DNA of 64,000 nt from a virus. Made by a program: the position numbers and the translations under genes. This document shows positions 12,762-47,515 of this stretch, one piece after another. Where the stretch lies: IMG/VR virus record IMGVR_UViG_3300045988_080644; one strand, written 5' to 3'. Below the pieces are notes generated by a model, which saw only the letters and a list, made by a program, of their open reading frames with translations, did not search any database and was not told the DNA's origin. How positions within the stretch are numbered: the stretch's first letter is position 1; every line of letters begins with the position of its first letter.

Positions 12762-13016
12762 TTAAATATCGCGATTAAGCATTTTAAAGAATTTAGAAAC
12801 TGGATTAGAACCTGCAAGGCTCAGCCCATCATGACACCAAATAGTTAATAATACGCCAAATACTATTACTTCTATGATGTTAAGTACAGGAACAAATAGC
12901 AGTAATAATGCTATTATAAATGCATAAAGAGGTATGCCTATCTTAGGCTTTAAATCTATGACAAGCATAAATTCAATAGCTGCCACAACTAAACAGAATA
13001 TAAATAAACCAAACAT
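12762..13016 (-). CDS. small multi-pass membrane protein
   Basis: Almost entirely hydrophobic 84-aa ORF. Confidence 0.6.
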   Translation of the reverse strand: MFGLFIFCLVVAAIEFMLVIDLKPKIGIPLYAFIIALLLLFVPVLNIIEVIVFGVLLTIWCHDGLSLAGSNPVSKFFKMLNRDI

Positions 13017-13065
13017 AACAAATTATTTATCAAGTCCTACTAATGTTGATGAGTTACCTGTAACC

Positions 13066-13596
13066 TTAGGAAGGTTGCTAAATGATGATTCTTTCTGAAT
13101 TTTCTTCATATAATGGAAAAATTTTTAAACGTTCTCTATCTGCAATTATTTTAGCTTCTTCTAAAGTATCATAGTATCCAAAAGAAATACCTTTAATTCG
13201 TACTCTGTATTTACCATTTTCAATAGTAACATTTCTTATTCCAGTTTTGCTTTTATCAACGGAGGTATTAGTAGCATTATCTTTCTTAGATAACTCCCTT
13301 AAATTACTTTTTCTGTTATCTAGAGTATTATGATTAATATGATCAATTACATTATTTTCATCCGTTTTAGACATAATCATATTATGCATCCAATATTGTT
13401 TTCTAACACCTTCTTTTTGTATCTTAGTACGAACCCCGTCTACATGCCCTTTACGATTATTTGTAATGTGCCATGTTCCTTTTATGCTAGATACTTTTTG
13501 GAAGTCTTCCTTATCTACATAACATTCTAATTGATTATCCTTATAATTTATGTAGATTATATAATAATCCTATTCTTCTTTATATTTATTTTTCAT
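13066..13596 (-). CDS. free-standing HNH homing endonuclease with AP2-type DNA-binding domain (TAG-recoded)
   Basis: IDHINHNTLDNRKSNL (HNH) followed by GIRNV..GKYRVRI (AP2-like). Checked codon by codon: the frame stays open from ATG 13596 through an in-frame TAG at 13570-13572. The annotated TAG stop at 13078 reads on 4 codons to TAA at 13066. Confidence 0.7.
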
Positions 13597-14384
13597 TATT
13601 TTAAATCATTTAGTCCAATAAGTACAGAACTCCCTGCACCCACTACTTTTGGAGATTCTCCAGACCATTTCTCGATCCACTGCTTCTTAACAAGCAATGG
13701 TGTAAGAGAAGCATTTACAATGGCATTAGCCTTAGCCTCTGCTTCGGCTACTACAATCTTCTTCTTTGCTTCTGCCTCAGCTACTTGTACTTCATTAGCT
13801 GCTTTCTGTGCTAACTGAATAGCTCTGTTCTTAGCATCTACAGCTTCTACAATAGTCTTAGGATATTGCAAACCACTAGTAAACTGGTCAAGTACAAATC
13901 CTTCCTTGTCAAGAAGTTTAGAAAGACGCTTCTCAATTGCCTGTTCTACAGCTTCACGATTTGACACAATCTGGTCTGTAGTAAATTTATTAATCTCAAT
14001 ACGACAGGCATCCTTTACATACTTAAATACAGGACCATTAATCACATCAGTTAATTCTTTGCGATATTTACGAAATACCTTTGGAGCAGCACCATCCTTA
14101 ACTTTAAGATTTACATTTGGATCAACTTTAAATTCAGAACCATCCTTAGCATTAATTGTAAATGGCTCATAGTCAATAGTCTGTACATAGGTAGGATACT
14201 CATATACTTCCTGAGTAGCCGGATTATAGAATACTCGTCCAGTCACCATAGATACATCATCTACACCTCTTTCAGAGCCATAGAGATTAACTAAGATACC
14301 TTCACAACCAGCATCGATACGTTCACAACTAGTGAAACTTAATGACAACATTAAAGCACTCGCAAATAAAAAGACTTTTCTCAT
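13596..14384 (-). CDS. SPFH/band-7 (prohibitin-like) lipoprotein
   Basis: Lipobox LSFTSC; C-terminal AEAEAKKKIVVAEAEAKANAI alanine/glutamate-rich helix typical of SPFH proteins. Confidence 0.6.
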   Translation of the reverse strand: MRKVFLFASALMLSLSFTSCERIDAGCEGILVNLYGSERGVDDVSMVTGRVFYNPATQEVYEYPTYVQTIDYEPFTINAKDGSEFKVDPNVNLKVKDGAAPKVFRKYRKELTDVINGPVFKYVKDACRIEINKFTTDQIVSNREAVEQAIEKRLSKLLDKEGFVLDQFTSGLQYPKTIVEAVDAKNRAIQLAQKAANEVQVAEAEAKKKIVVAEAEAKANAIVNASLTPLLVKKQWIEKWSGESPKVVGAGSSVLIGLNDLK

Positions 14385-18618: not shown

Positions 18619-18691
18619 TATACTATAAGTAGGTTGACTTTGTAATAGGATCTTATTCTCTACCATTACTAGTTCTCTACTTTATTATTAG

Positions 18692-18775
18692 TTGTCTAGG
18701 AGAGATTTGAACTCCCGAAGCTAAATAGCAGCTGATTTACAGTCAGCCGTGTTTGACCACTTCACATACTAGACA
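18692..18775 (-). tRNA. tRNA-Tyr(GUA), class II
   Basis: Acceptor TGTCTAG/CTAGACA, anticodon arm GCTGA-CTGTAAA-TCAGC, long variable arm, T-loop TTCAAAT. Confidence 0.85.
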
Positions 18776-18793
18776 ATAAATTCTTTTTATGAG

Positions 18794-18873
18794 TTGCAGA
18801 GGCAGGATTCGAACCACTTTGTGCGACCTCTTGGTTATGAGCCAAGCGAGATGACCAACTTCTCCACTCTGCG
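18794..18873 (-). tRNA. tRNA(CAU), initiator-like, aberrant T stem
   Basis: Anticodon arm CTTGG-CTCATAA-CCAAG; C1/A72 mismatch at the top of the acceptor stem; the T stem GCA[CAAAGT]GG/CCTGC needs a 6-nt bulge. Confidence 0.5.
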
Positions 18874-18884
18874 ATATTAAAAAG

Positions 18885-18956
18885 AGCTTCAAGTAGGATT
18901 CGAACCTACGACCTGCTCATTACAAGTGAGCTGCACTACCACTGTGCTATTGAAGC
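18885..18956 (-). tRNA. tRNA-Thr(UGU)
   Basis: Canonical cloverleaf; anticodon arm GCTCA-CTTGTAA-TGAGC; T arm GTAGG-TTCGAAT-CCTAC. Confidence 0.9.
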
Positions 18957-19101
18957 TAGAATAAAGGCGAATATGGCATTAGACGGGCAAACTATCGTGA
19001 CCATATTCTAATAATACATTGAGCTATCAGGCATACTCGTGGATTGCCACCGCTACCTCTAACAACCACCCAGTTAAACGCTAGGTGCTCTCCATTATTT
19101 G

Positions 19102-19175
19102 TAGGTGATATAGGACTTGAACCTATGACCTCTTGCTTATCAGGCAAGCTATCTAACCAACTGATATAATCACCT
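19102..19175 (-). tRNA. tRNA-Ile(GAU)
   Basis: Acceptor AGGTGAT/ATCACCT; anticodon arm CTTGC-CTGATAA-GCAAG. Confidence 0.9.
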
Positions 19176-19242
19176 AAATTGTTGGACCACTAAGGTTAGA
19201 ATTCTGTAGTGTTTCCGGTTACACCATAGTACAATTTGTTTG

Positions 19243-19319
19243 CGGAATATAAGGGACTCGAACCCTTAGTTTTACTAGAGTGACAGTCTAGTTCCCTTAC
19301 CAACAGGGCTTAATACTCC
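19243..19319 (-). tRNA. tRNA-Asp(GUC)
   Basis: Anticodon arm CTAGA-CTGTCAC-TCTAG; T arm AAGGG-TTCGAGT-CCCTT. Confidence 0.85.
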
Positions 19320-19610
19320 GGGCGCCTCTTGTGTACACATTTCTTTTCGAGAAGGTGATGAACCTTAGAAATAAGAGGCATATATTTAAATTTACTCTCC
19401 CAACATCAGTAAGTACCCCTTTGGCACTTACTAGTAGAAATCTAATTAAATAACTGTAAATGGTAATACTCGATAGTCTTTAACATCGTACCAAGCTGCT
19501 ACAGTTTTCATTCCTTTCCACCATGATTTGATAATTCTTTTCATACAGTTTAAAATTTAATTGTTAATTAAATAATCTAATTGTATAGAAGGAAGAAGAA
19601 GTAAACATCG

Positions 19611-19688
19611 TGCGAGATGTGGGAATCAAACCCACGCAAGCCTTCTGGTTGGAAGCCAGATATGCGCCTTCAGCTACACTAATCTCGC
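19611..19688 (-). tRNA. tRNA-Gly(UCC)
   Basis: Acceptor GCGAGAT/ATCTCGC; anticodon arm TCTGG-CTTCCAA-CCAGA; unusually long (8-nt) variable region. Confidence 0.75.
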
Positions 19689-19699
19689 ATATTTATTAG

Positions 19700-19774
19700 T
19701 GGACCACGGTGGGACTCGAACCCACGACATCTACCTTGCAAAAGTAGCGTTCTAGCCAGCTGAACTACGAGCCC
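19700..19774 (-). tRNA. tRNA-Ala(UGC)
   Basis: Anticodon arm CTACT-TTTGCAA-GGTAG; G3-U70 wobble and A73 present; the acceptor stem needs one bulged nucleotide. Confidence 0.75.
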
Positions 19775-33498: not shown

Positions 33499-33831
33499 TG
33501 GTGGAGCTAGACGGTACTGCCCCGTCGTCTTGCCTATTTGCATCAAAACGTTCTTACAGCATAGGTTTTAAAGACTTTCCTTGTCTTAGGGTTGACAAGA
33601 TTAACATTGTCAACTTCCACCACTCTGTTCCTAAAGTATACAGAGAACTTATAAGAAATGAAAGAATAGTGCACCTTTCTGTTCCTAAGCAAGTGCTGCT
33701 CGGCTTCTCAGGCTGCAATAGCGTAAGAAGCGGAAGTGTTATTTACTTCGCCAATTAATTTTTTACTTGTCTATCCAAGTTGTCTTGCTGTGTTTCTTAT
33801 CTCCTAGACAATCAAATACTAGTTTAGCCCC
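33499..33831 (-). ncRNA. ssrA: tmRNA (ssrA), one-piece
   Basis: 5' GGGGCTA pairs with 3' TAGCTCC (including G3-U70), followed by an encoded ACCA. The 3' end AGCTCCACCA is identical to the E. coli tmRNA terminus. Internal tag frame GGC GAA GTA AAT AAC ACT TCC GCT TCT TAC GCT ATT GCA GCC TGA gives GEVNNTSASYAIAA*. A hairpin plus T-run follows directly. Confidence 0.8.
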
Positions 33832-44323: not shown

Positions 44324-44533
44324 GAAAATGTGCCTGAGGGTCGTTAATCCTCTCCTTTCTTAGTCAAGAGAACGTTGCAACTTGCCACTAAGACACACTG
44401 TTTTTGAGTTTTTGTAAGTCCTCCGACTTATTAAAGTTTTCGCATAATTTTGATAAGAATTCTACTTTCACAAGCAAAACTCTTTGAGCCTTATTCAATA
44501 ATTTAAAAATTATATAAAATTTAGGATAGAAAG

Positions 44534-44605
44534 GAAATGCGGACAGATTCGAACTGCCGACCTTCTACTCTACGGTAGATGCTCTAACCACTAAGCTACA
44601 CATTT
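44534..44605 (-). tRNA. tRNA-like gene with a 6-nt anticodon loop (identity undetermined)
   Basis: Canonical acceptor (AAATGTG/CGCATTT), D arm, 5-nt variable region and T arm (GGCAG-TTCGAAT-CTGTC), but the anticodon stem TCTAC/GTAGA encloses only CGTAGA. Confidence 0.5.
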
Positions 44606-45369: not shown

Positions 45370-46431
45370 TTAATATCCTTTATTATAATTTAAATTTAAA
45401 TCATATTTATTTGCATAATGTTTTCCCTAAACTCTTTGAGGAGCATTTCCATAATGTACTTTTAATGGATGTCCTTCTTCTCCAGATTCATATATATAAT
45501 TACCCTATCTAACAGGCAAAGAATATATAGAATCTCCTACTGCGTTATTGTTTATCATATAGTTAAGTGCATCTGTAGGTAAATTAACACAACCATAAGA
45601 TTTATTTCTAATTCCATTTTTAAAATCAGTCTATCTACTCTTAGGCATAATATGAAATAAAACGGAAGTTTTCTACTTAGTGTTTGTATTATCTCTACTT
45701 CCCTCATTCCATCTAAATGCTGGATGTCCTTCATAACTAGAAGAAGATAAAGTAAAAATACCAGCAGGTGTTACCTAGGCTTGTTTACTTCCATTATAAA
45801 AGTTTTTATCTTTCTAGTATATTGGATCAGTTTTATAATTATTCCAAAAATTATATCCATCCTAGTCATTAGATAAACCTGTCATAACATCAAATTGTGC
45901 TAAGGCTTTGTTTCCTTGCATGTGTTTTAATTGATGATTATTTCTATCTAGTATCCAATAAGGTTCAGTAACACCACTATGTATTTTATGGTCTATAATA
46001 GCCTATTCATTCTTGTTAGTAGATAATGGATAAGGTTTTGGCTCAAACTTATTAATCCAATTAGTTAAACTAGTAAACATATCGGTATCTTTGTTAGTCT
46101 ACTAATTCTTTTTTAACTAATAATCATGCCATGCCTATTTACTTTTTACACCCCAATCTCCATCTACTGCAATATTATAACCAGCTTTAACTAGTTCCTA
46201 CTGCTATTGACGAACTTTGTTAGGGTCATACATAGCACCATATTTAGCTCTTAATCTAGCATCATAATTATTTTGCTGTTTTCTTCTAGTCTAGAGCTAT
46301 TTAGAACCCTATGTAGCTCTCTGATTCATCTATTTTACCTTTTTTAATCCAGAATTAGTAAAATCCTTCATTTTCTATCTTTGTACTCCAATAATGTTTC
46401 CAAGATAACTATTTTCAAAATTTCCTGTCAT
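45370..46431 (-). CDS. peptidoglycan-binding plus YkuD (L,D-transpeptidase-fold) protein, TAG-recoded
   Basis: Checked codon by codon: 353 sense codons from ATG 46431 to TAA 45370, with 19 in-frame TAG and no TAA or TGA. PG_binding_1-like LVKAGYNIAVDGDWGVKSK(TAG)AWHDY(TAG); YkuD catalytic FHIMP...SYGCVNLP. Confidence 0.85.
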
Positions 46432-46627
46432 AAATATTAATATTTAAGTTATTATTTTTAATTGATTAATCACTTATTTATTATATGTCTATGGCATAGA
46501 AATTACCAATAAATTAAAACTCATACTACTTTCGCAAGCAGTATGAGTTAATGTGTAAGTCATTTTATTGACTTATCAACTCAACTACAAGAAATTCATC
46601 AATTTTCACAAATTAATAATTAATATG

Positions 46628-46678
46628 TCGCTTAGACGGGATTCGAACCCGTAAGACCATTCCTGGTCAAGGGATTTT
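46628..46678 (-). tRNA. tRNA-Leu(UAA), 3' exon
   Basis: AAAA-TCCCT (rest of the anticodon loop plus 3' stem), long variable arm TGACCAGGAATGGTC, T arm ACGGG-TTCGAAT-CCCGT, acceptor CTAAGCG, A73. Confidence 0.75.
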
Positions 46679-47265
46679 CTTACTACACTTGCTTTTATAC
46701 AAGCTAACTTAAATAAAGGGATTCGAACCCTTAATCCTCAAGAGATATTTAATGACGACTTTAGAGGAGATTCCGTCAATCTGCTGCCGTATACCAATTC
46801 CGCCATATTTAAGTTATTGTAGTCTGGACTATTTTATTACCTTATCAATTAACTTCGAAGTAAGGAATTAGGTTTTACCTCTCTCAATGAGCGTCTCCTT
46901 TTTTACATAATGCATTACTATTATAACCTTATTACTAAGGATGAAGTCTAAACCATTCCTTTTAATTAACTTAGGTATCTCCTCTATAGTCTCTACACAT
47001 TTATGCTGTAACACTCCAATTTACATTTAAGATAGATTAGCGTTCTATCACAATTTAGCTCGTCACCACCAAAACCTATGTCACCATAAGTGAGGCTTCT
47101 GTCGCAAGTTAATTAGATTTCTGAATACTGCTTCTATAATCATTACTCTGCTTCTTACACAGATGCTAACCTTTTTACAATTAGTAATTAACTTGTTTAA
47201 TTAGGGAGATTCTACTTCTATTATTTCTAATAGAGCACTCAAATTCACCATTACTGGTGTTCCAA
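46679..47265 (-). mobile_element. putative group I intron in the tRNA-Leu(UAA) anticodon loop
   Basis: Inserted between U34 and A35. The 5' exon ends in U and the intron ends in G. A candidate IGS GAGT lies about 30 nt in and pairs with exon ACTT. Multiple helices and no ORF. Confidence 0.6.
46708..46812 (-). ncRNA. tRNA-like element nested in the tRNA-Leu intron
   Basis: 7-bp acceptor TTAAATA/TATTTAA, Leu-type D region TGGCGGAATTGGTATAC, perfect T arm AAGGG-TTCGAAT-CCCTT, but no canonical anticodon arm; 105 nt. Confidence 0.45.
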
Positions 47266-47300
47266 AAGTCCCTCGTGTATCCCAGTTTCACCACTAAGCG
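47266..47300 (-). tRNA. tRNA-Leu(UAA), 5' exon
   Basis: CGCTTAG (pairs with CTAAGCG at 46629-46635), D arm GTG-AAACTGGGATA-CAC, anticodon stem AGGGA plus CTT. Confidence 0.75.
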
Positions 47301-47515
47301 ATAAAGCAACTAATTATCTGCTAGTTGCCAACAATATTTGGGAAAAAACCAACATGTAATTTATGGGGGTTGGTATTCTTATTTTTCAAACAAATTAAAT
47401 ACGTTCAACATCATAGTCATATCCAATACCAATGTTTTCTAATAACCAAGATGGATCATCCAATACATAATCATCCGGAACTTCTACTGTTACTTTTAAT
47501 ACTATTTTCTTCATA

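Follow-up and report, generated by a model that had tools for sequence, protein, structure and literature searches.

A predicted group I intron interrupts the tRNA-Leu(UAA) gene of a phage and holds a tRNA-like RNA

We analysed a stretch of 64,000 nucleotides (nt), hereafter the window, of the IMG/VR virus record IMGVR_UViG_3300045988_080644, in which the minus strand carries a tRNA-Leu(UAA) gene split into two halves by a 587-nt insert, predicted here to be a group I intron. The coordinates and the composition of both halves (Table 1) are, to the base, those of an earlier reading of the sequence (the original prediction). When long introns were allowed, ARAGORN called a tRNA-Leu(taa) at c[46627,47300] with a 587-nt intron at position 36; the insertion point lies between anticodon nucleotides U34 and A35. 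After joining of the exons in silico, ARAGORN in default mode called the class II tRNA-Leu(UAA) that had been foreseen, a clean cloverleaf of 86-87 nt with the long variable arm, the UAA anticodon and A73 all present; CCA is not encoded in the 3' exon. The predicted ligated junction reads ...ACGAGGGACUU/AAAAUCCCUUGACC..., also written ATACACGAGGGACTT/AAAATCCCTTGACCAGG (in exon sequences a slash marks the junction or insertion point). The split gene is the only tRNA-Leu detected by ARAGORN in the 64 kb and occupies the conserved tRNA-Leu(UAA) slot. In default mode, ARAGORN reported 16 tRNAs across the window, the split tRNA-Leu not among them, and an Rfam scan of the window at gathering score returned neither this gene nor any group I intron. 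Stop-to-stop frames in the intron reach at most 52 codons, and 65 when TAG counts as sense, and thus no open reading frame (ORF) is present. The intron is ORF-less, as first described, but it is not empty, since a 105-nt tRNA-like element at 46812-46708 had been overlooked.

A further 14 phage tRNA-Leu(UAA) genes are split in the same way, and the arrangement is therefore not a product of chance. With the window, the 15 genes have 8 different acceptor stems, all fully complementary. The two halves always co-occur and lie 340-726 nt apart; as their acceptor stems nevertheless compensate, they are not independent tRNA fragments, one of the cases in which the original prediction would have fallen. 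Once spliced in silico, with a few intron registers corrected by hand beforehand, 15/15 tRNA-Leu(UAA) and 2/2 tRNA-Lys(UUU) genes were called as normal tRNAs by ARAGORN in default mode. The core motif AGACTWTAKAGGAGATACCTA is present in 26 IMG/VR viral contigs, many of which gave, in ARAGORN intron mode and independently of the motif, split tRNA-Leu(taa) calls with introns of 476-587 nt; a split tRNA-Lys(ttt) was called in the same mode in contig L010. Gut-phage contigs thus hold at least 14 further tRNA-Leu(UAA) and 3 tRNA-Lys(UUU) genes split by group I introns, and 21 family members in such contigs have the same core, all 21 ending in G. In L010, a 584-nt copy (approximately 13,000-13,700) stands after U34 of tRNA-Lys(UUU) with a co-varied guide, and L011 and L021 (7895-8183) carry compact introns of about 200 nt after U35 of tRNA-Lys(UUU), in which the guide GAAG pairs with CUUU.

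The intron interior is about 85% identical to that of Lak megaphages B and C. In Lak-B1 (L001:1153-1899) and Lak-C1 (L005:1154-1888) the tRNA-Leu(UAA) gene has two group I introns, and a tRNA-Leu was called only once both were removed; one is the anticodon-loop intron, and the other (309 and 308 nt, respectively) lies in the D loop after GGU/AGA and matches RF00028, the Rfam group I model, with 40.5 bits (E=1.2e-8). In Lak-A1 (L006:1390-1880) and L009, a related core was seen between AGCTTAG... and ...ATGGGTTCGATTCCCAT-CTAAGCT, in an unusual tRNA-like gene that has no long variable arm. The window itself is not a Lak megaphage, the Lak matches being limited to the intron and small segments; its nearest records are the uncultured human-gut phages MT835492 and MT835539.

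Intron-free alleles were found as well. L011 and L021 contain an uninterrupted tRNA-Leu(UAA), reading GAGGGACTTAAAATCCCTT (also written ...CACGAGGGACTTAAAATCCCTTGG...), with a junction identical to the predicted product of the window. The syntenic MT835539 has the same gene order, the upstream element and the downstream terminator hairpin, and its tRNA-Leu(UAA), of different sequence, is uninterrupted. That gene and intron are missed by the standard tRNA and Rfam scans could point to a dead gene, i.e. a tRNA-Leu pseudogene with a decaying, non-splicing intron remnant or another insertion, whose halves were retained by chance or because of a recent origin. We consider this very improbable in view of the 8 acceptor stems that are perfectly complementary across 340-726 nt of intron, the position of the only detected tRNA-Leu at its conserved slot, the co-variation of the guide with the exons and the splitting by family members of an essential primase gene with its frame preserved, the last two described below.

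The secondary structure was then modelled on 18 family members, aligned after excision of the variable modules (286 columns, 84% mean identity). The predicted model of 69 pairs covers P1, P10, P2, P3, P4, P5, P7, P8, P9, P9.1 and P9.2. The 5' exon ends in U and the intron in G (46679), and the GAGU that the original prediction had placed about 30 nt into the intron is located at intron nt 26-29 (47240-47237), where it pairs with the exon ACUU as P1, as proposed, with the U.G pair conserved in 17/18 aligned members. In the model 94.3% of the cells were paired, compared to 35-42% with the partners slid, 26 pairs were changed on both sides, compared to 4-10, and none of 500 shuffles reached any of its five measures. 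P2 (7/7 pairs), inner P8 (8/8), P5, P9, P9.1, P9.2 and P10 covary. P10 is UUU/AAA in the Leu and primase copies and becomes UAA/UUA in the tRNA-Lys copy of L010, and so the guide tracks its exons. The GAAA of L2 is invariant, and the partner of the P8 CCUAAG is UAUGG in 14/18 members and UAAGG in the window; we take CCUAAG...UAUGG to be the 11-nt GAAA-tetraloop receptor of a putative L2-P8 contact, as in Azoarcus. Between members, the P1 loop, the P3-P4 arm, P6, the P8 extension and the P9.1 loop are exchangeable modules, and the core blocks are common to all; each conserved core block is retained in the window copy, whose G+C content is very low and which has, besides the nested tRNA-like RNA, three other lineage-variable insertions.

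Table 1. Features of the split tRNA-Leu(UAA) gene and of the predicted fold of its intron
Feature	Position	Strand	Remarks
Upstream element with inverted repeat GCAACUA...UAGUUGC	47304..47339	-	94% identical in MT835539
5' exon of tRNA-Leu(UAA)	47266..47300	-	tRNA nt 1-34; CGCTTAG TG GTG AAACTGGGATA CAC G AGGGA CTT; 3' end ...AGGGACUU (U34)
Intron of tRNA-Leu(UAA), predicted group I	46679..47265	-	587 nt, without ORF
Small hairpin CACCA-GUAA-UGGUG in P1 loop	47246..47259	-	lineage-specific; absent from Lak-B/C and primase copies
Internal guide sequence	47237..47243	-	UUU (P10) pairs with 3' exon AAA; GAGU (P1) with 5' exon ACUU, U.G at splice site
P2 hairpin, invariant GAAA loop	47217..47234	-	compensatory changes in 7/7 pairs
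P3 5' strand AUCUCC	47205..47210	-	partner 46982-46977; invariant in 18/18 members
Lineage-variable extra arm between P3 and P4	47106..47194	-	absent in L017 and Lak-B/C; other sequences elsewhere
P4 (GCGACA/UGACGA) enclosing P5 arm	47060..47105	-	weak, A.A mismatch; P5 arm 47096-47068, GUGA loop
P6 arm, variable module	47006..47053	-	closing pairs differ: GAAC/GUUC, GAGGA/UCCUC, GAAACU/AGUUUC (by eye)
P7 5' strand GACUAU	46986..46991	-	J6/7 (47005-46993) before; partner 46832-46827; invariant
P3 3' strand GGAGAU	46977..46982	-	
P8 arm	46839..46976	-	outer ACC/GGU, CCUAAG...UAAGG internal loop, inner helix, variable extension
P7 3' strand AUAGUC	46827..46832	-	J8/7 (46838-46834) before
P9 5' strand ACUACA	46818..46823	-	partner 46687-46682 UGUAGU; ACUACA/UGUAGU changes to ACCACA/UGUGGU
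P9.1 helix AACUUA/UAAGUU	46706..46815	-	loop is an insertion hotspot
Nested tRNA-like RNA in P9.1 loop	46708..46812	-	105 nt; Rfam tRNA 33.1 bits (cut-off 29)
P9.2 hairpin CUUGU-AUAAAA-GCAAG	46688..46703	-	G-C to A-U change
P9 3' strand UGUAGU	46682..46687	-	
omega-G, last intron nucleotide	46679	-	likewise final base in 118/120 bacterial tRNA-Leu introns
3' exon of tRNA-Leu(UAA)	46628..46678	-	AAAA, TCCCT, long variable arm GACC..GGTC, T arm ACGGG-TTCGAAT-CCCGT, acceptor 3' strand CTAAGCG, A73
Terminator-like hairpin	46518..46549	-	14-bp stem and T-run, 79 nt downstream of tRNA; kept in MT835539

The compact 214-nt member of L021 was matched by RF00028 over its full length (43.6 bits, E=4.6e-10), and this alignment, from which the placement of P4 was also taken, maps P1-P9 onto blocks that are nearly verbatim in the window intron. 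In 185,579 bacterial and archaeal genomes, taken as species representatives, the phage core motif had no exact counterpart. With the pattern GGTAGACGCNNCGGACTT-N235-265-AAAATCCG, an exon pattern that biased the introns sampled, 120 bacterial tRNA-Leu loci (865 kb) were fetched, from cyanobacteria, Alpha- and Gammaproteobacteria, Acidobacteria and others. A profile hidden Markov model of the phage core, exons removed, was run against these 865 kb, and 49/49 matches at E<=1 fell inside tRNA-Leu introns on the correct strand; the best was L191 (Methylocella; E=3e-7, profile positions 1-223), followed by L119, L175 and L121. The blocks common to the phage and the bacterial introns include UUGAGUGCUC-P2(GAAA), GUAGAA-P3, GGUGUAGAGACUA-P3', ACCUAA(A/G)-P8, AUAGUCCAGACCAC-P9...GGUAAG and two 3' hairpins; the best bacterial match has a terminal GUGGUAAG, as do several phage members, and the window has UGUAGUAAG there. 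Judged from these comparisons, the phage intron belongs, as a diverged member, to the lineage of tRNA-Leu(UAA) introns and does not occupy the site by chance. The original prediction had pointed to the classic cyanobacterial and plastid intron; the U34/A35 site is indeed the same, but the closest bacterial relatives sampled are of alphaproteobacterial type and not cyanobacterial.

Covariation, the Rfam match on a compact homolog, the bacterial homology and the intron-free alleles together support the group I identity proposed at the outset, and we consider it very probable that the intron which interrupts this phage tRNA-Leu(UAA) at U34/A35 is a self-splicing one of group I and belongs to the lineage found in bacterial tRNA-Leu(UAA). 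Several points weigh against this conclusion. Splicing itself is predicted from anatomy and comparison. RF00028 gave no match even at E<=10 on the window intron (permissive Rfam scan, 46400-47500), nor at E<=10 on the anticodon-loop intron of Lak-B1 (intron 2), the 43.6 bits of L021 lie below the gathering score of 50, and a profile of the bacterial introns gave two weak matches in the window (E=1 and 3.4), both intron-internal and collinear. Every helix of the core can be drawn, but P3, P7 and outer P8, 100% paired, never vary, so that covariation says nothing for or against them. P4, for which several pairings drawn by eye failed and the version mapped from L021 was kept and marked as weak, is only 69% paired, and most members have an A.A mismatch in it. 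At the splice site, one member, L018, has U-A in place of U.G. Finally, the UAAGG variant in the putative receptor of the window copy and its 105-nt P9.1 insert could slow folding.

The Rfam model had been put forward as a check of the original prediction, and its silence on the window copy, taken alone, would have led to a wrong rejection. Bacterial tRNA-Leu introns score in Rfam from 82 bits (cyanobacterial) down to 52.9-55.3 bits for those closest to the phage family, and because the scores already fall along this gradient a miss on the AT-rich, expanded phage copies can be understood. Since the compact homolog and the bacterial relatives do match, the miss is not evidence of absence; it reflects large insertions and AT-richness rather than an absent core.

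The same insertions (the arm at 47194-47106, the extended P8 and the 105-nt P9.1 insert), together with the low G+C, the weak P4 and the UAAGG receptor, would also suit a group I core whose expanded copy has lost splicing on its own and depends on a protein of the phage or the host, either maturase-like or a chaperone, in the manner of plastid trnL introns; those of chloroplast tRNA-Leu in land plants no longer self-splice in vitro. Such a dependence seems unlikely to us, as the core blocks are all kept, the insertions are confined to loops that vary in the family, no maturase or endonuclease ORF is found in or beside the intron and the same family interrupts the essential primase gene. Removal by protein enzymes, either an endonuclease of archaeal or eukaryal type with a ligase or RNase P/Z acting on the inner element with an RNA ligase, has in its favour that the inner tRNA-like element could attract RNase P/Z and that short inserts with tRNA-like parts and no group I character occur in tRNAs of these phages (the tRNA-Arg of the window; Devoto et al. 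2019). It is extremely improbable given the full group I core, the U.G pair, omega-G, the covariation of the P1/P10 guide and the homology to self-splicing bacterial introns; furthermore, the Lak-B/C and primase copies are without the inner element and yet have the same boundaries. No bulge-helix-bulge motif was seen by eye at the intron junctions.

In the self-splicing pathway that we favour, minus-strand transcription would yield a precursor that extends as far as the hairpin at 46549-46518. Its guide, 5'-UUU-GAGU-3', would pair with ACUU of the 5' exon (P1, with U34.G) and with AAA of the 3' exon (P10), and the P3-P7-P8 core would bind a free guanosine, which would attack after U34. The freed 3'-OH of U34 would then attack after omega-G and the ligated exons would yield an 86-nt class II tRNA-Leu(UAA), to which CCA would be added by the host. 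More speculatively, the tRNA-shaped RNA may be cut from the excised intron by tRNA-processing enzymes.

In this nested RNA, an acceptor stem of 7 bp extends the P9.1 helix, and a D arm and a T arm (UUCGAAU) are present. The element is found in the P9.1 loop of the window, L014, L015, L016, L019, L023, L026 and L028; L007, whose exons are the same as in the window, has a different insert in this loop and Lak-B/C a plain hairpin. Its D-arm motif occurs in 51 viral contigs in 25 distinct versions, mostly free-standing in phage tRNA arrays, free-standing copies being found in L004:1497-1598 (crAss cr60_1, just 5' of a suppressor tRNA) and L034-L076. Across 16 versions, 95.5% of the cells were paired in the model of this RNA, compared to 38-62% with the partners slid; 7/7 acceptor pairs and 4/5 T-stem pairs covary, and the D arm is invariant, with a G.G mismatch. 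In the place of the anticodon arm, a first stem UGACG/CGUCA (variants UGGCG/CGCCA and UGAUG/CAUCG) is interleaved with a second, CCUC/GAGG (variants GCCC/GGGU, GCUC/GAGU and CCAC/GUGG). Both stems covary and are connected by an A-rich linker, which predicts an H-type pseudoknot topology. A conserved 5-bp anticodon stem with a 7-nt loop was not found in the versions of this RNA, and no Rfam family besides tRNA matched the nested copy. From its sequence, the element is best described as tRNA-like and not as a demonstrable tRNA. ARAGORN called the copies of L023 and L030 as tRNA-Leu(taa) with a 25-nt intron; this was rejected, since covariation is seen in no anticodon stem and the UUAA after stem A is not conserved (it is not kept in L039, L061 and L071). 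A pistol or HDV-like ribozyme was rejected as well, with no Rfam ribozyme match at E<=10 and loop sizes that do not fit.

The intron interior also matches the crAss-like IAS virus and cr116_1, in each between two coding sequences labelled 'DNA primase'. The primase introns lie at L002:2998-3596 (IAS virus) and L003:2998-3560 (cr116_1), and others are present in L020, L022, L029 and L032. In IAS virus and cr116_1, excision at the predicted sites joins the two primase coding sequences in frame (...KVTLRL/KIYQPFNKKGYKW...), and the crAss-like primase annotated in RefSeq as two separate coding sequences thus corresponds to the exons of one intron-split gene. The 117-residue junction peptide is contiguous in about 50 crAss-like phages, including crAss001, whose empty site reads CACTTTAAAGAT (short form CACUUUAAAGAU). 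In cr116_1, an HNH endonuclease gene was observed beside the primase gene, overlapping the end of exon 2.

The tRNA-Leu site GGGACTT/AAAATCCC and the primase site TTAGACTT/AAAATTTAC, the core of which as a short target is CUUAGACUU/AAAAUUUAC, have only (G)ACTT/AAAAT in common; of these bases, ACTT is read by P1 and the first AAA by P10. The site of the tRNA-Lys copy is CACTT/TTAA, with the guide changed to match. No homing endonuclease is encoded in the window intron or adjoins the split tRNA-Leu (the window was searched), and no plausible endonuclease is encoded in any member of the intron family. These observations suggest spread to guide-fitting sites by reverse splicing or recombination rather than by endonuclease homing. 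We infer that the site pattern is the one that reverse-splicing transposition predicts, with recombination after illegitimate endonuclease cleavage as an alternative; the evidence for reverse-splicing transposition has been called circumstantial in a 2014 review (PMC3984707). It is possible, though we hold it doubtful, that an endonuclease-free intron family inserts at guide-fitting RNA sites of about 7-9 nt in unrelated gut phages, such as the tRNA-Leu(UAA) anticodon loop, tRNA-Lys with its co-evolved guide and a primase mRNA, and carries a releasable RNA cargo.

Other features were noted in the window. A tRNA with anticodon CUA (suppressor; 'Pyl' in ARAGORN) lies at 60021-60094 (+), and a YkuD-domain ORF downstream of the Leu gene, at 45373-46443 (-), is continuous only with TAG as sense; both are consistent with TAG recoding in this phage, and it is because of them that reading the intron frames with TAG as sense matters. 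The tRNA-Arg(UCU) at 50159-50295 (-) has a 62-nt insert after U34 (CTT/.../CTAA) with a T-arm-like GAGGTTCGACTCCTT inside; it lacks a group I core and is similar to the 'enigmatic' introns of Lak tRNAs (Devoto et al. 2019). Several tRNAs of the arrays at 18691-19774 (-) and 48467-49430 (-) exceed the usual length of their type (Met with 81 nt, Asp 78, Gly 79, Trp 91) and may hold small insertions, and an Rfam tRNA match at 48700-48771 has no ARAGORN call. For the tRNA at 44533-44605 (-) (Rfam 52.4 bits), ARAGORN gave a two-base anticodon '(ta)', i.e. an abnormal anticodon loop; L016, L019 and L026 have similar calls downstream of their intron-bearing Leu genes. Two RAGATH-1 hammerhead ribozymes about 900 nt apart, at 53971-54055 (-) and 54949-55054 (-), score 81.3 and 69.7 bits, above the gathering score, and a sub-threshold tmRNA match to the full model lies at 33499-33831 (-) (34.3 bits, gathering score 47, E=4e-10).

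For bacteria and plastids, the group I introns of tRNA-Leu(UAA) are textbook knowledge. The classic intron is that of Kuhsel et al. 1990, as cited in the 2014 review (PMC3984707). The phage intron is like its bacterial counterpart in the U34/A35 site, the P1 logic (ACUU paired with GAG.. with U.G), omega-G and the lack of an ORF. The phage copies, in contrast, are 340-726 nt long against about 235-265 nt in bacteria, a range set by the search pattern; they are phage-borne and AT-rich, with exchangeable arms (P3-P4, P6, P8, P9.1) and a nested tRNA-like RNA, fall below the Rfam threshold, and their family is also found in tRNA-Lys and in a protein-coding gene. The IC3 intron of Azoarcus tRNA-Ile(CAU) is similar in the GAAA of L2 and the CCUAAG/UAUGG-type sequence of P8, the putative receptor, whereas it lies in another tRNA at another position, is about 205 nt long and GC-rich, and is without the extra arms. 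The GUGUAGAGACUA...ACCUAAG block is presumably nearly identical to that of the Azoarcus intron.

The group I introns of phage protein genes (T4 td/nrdB/sunY; crAss-like and Jug phages, PMC7886860, PMC12880540) are phage-borne too, but they lie within ORFs, often with or beside endonuclease genes, whereas the host gene in the window is a tRNA; the primase introns of IAS virus and cr116_1 are members of the window intron's own family. According to the 2014 review (PMC3984707), all phage introns seen by then were in protein-coding genes despite the many phage tRNA genes, and the crAss-like and Jug phage papers report group I introns only in protein-coding genes (PMC7886860, PMC12880540). Devoto et al. 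2019 (PMC6784885) described short 'enigmatic' introns in Lak tRNAs and called phage tRNA introns previously unreported. These inserts likewise interrupt gut-phage tRNA genes, some with a tRNA-like piece inside, but they are 60-130 nt long and have no group I core. As Table 1 of that paper lists one tRNA intron (Tyr) for the Lak-B genomes, the two-intron tRNA-Leu of Lak-B/C was not recognised there. Our full-text literature search, which covered not all journals, brought up no account of a phage tRNA with a group I intron; the statement of the original prediction that this intron is undescribed in a phage tRNA array thus agrees with the searchable literature. What is new is the phage tRNA host, the modular expansion, the RNA cargo and the shared use of tRNA and mRNA sites.

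Phage tRNAs, then, do carry group I introns, which were missed by ARAGORN in default mode, by Rfam and by the Lak megaphage paper, and since standard annotation misses the split genes, counts of phage tRNA-Leu(UAA) are too low. Judging by the interchangeable peripheral arms, of which one has a tRNA-shaped RNA in it, group I introns may be carriers of RNA cargo as well as of protein genes. If the family does insert at guide-fitting RNA sites and release its cargo, Lak megaphages, crAss-like phages and the lineage of the window would be hosts of natural reverse-splicing transposition, and the released tRNA-like RNA could function by itself, e.g. as an anticodon-nuclease decoy or as an RNA with a role in processing or regulation. 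For intron mobility in the absence of an endonuclease, the family amounts to a natural experiment, and it makes reverse-splicing transposition testable.

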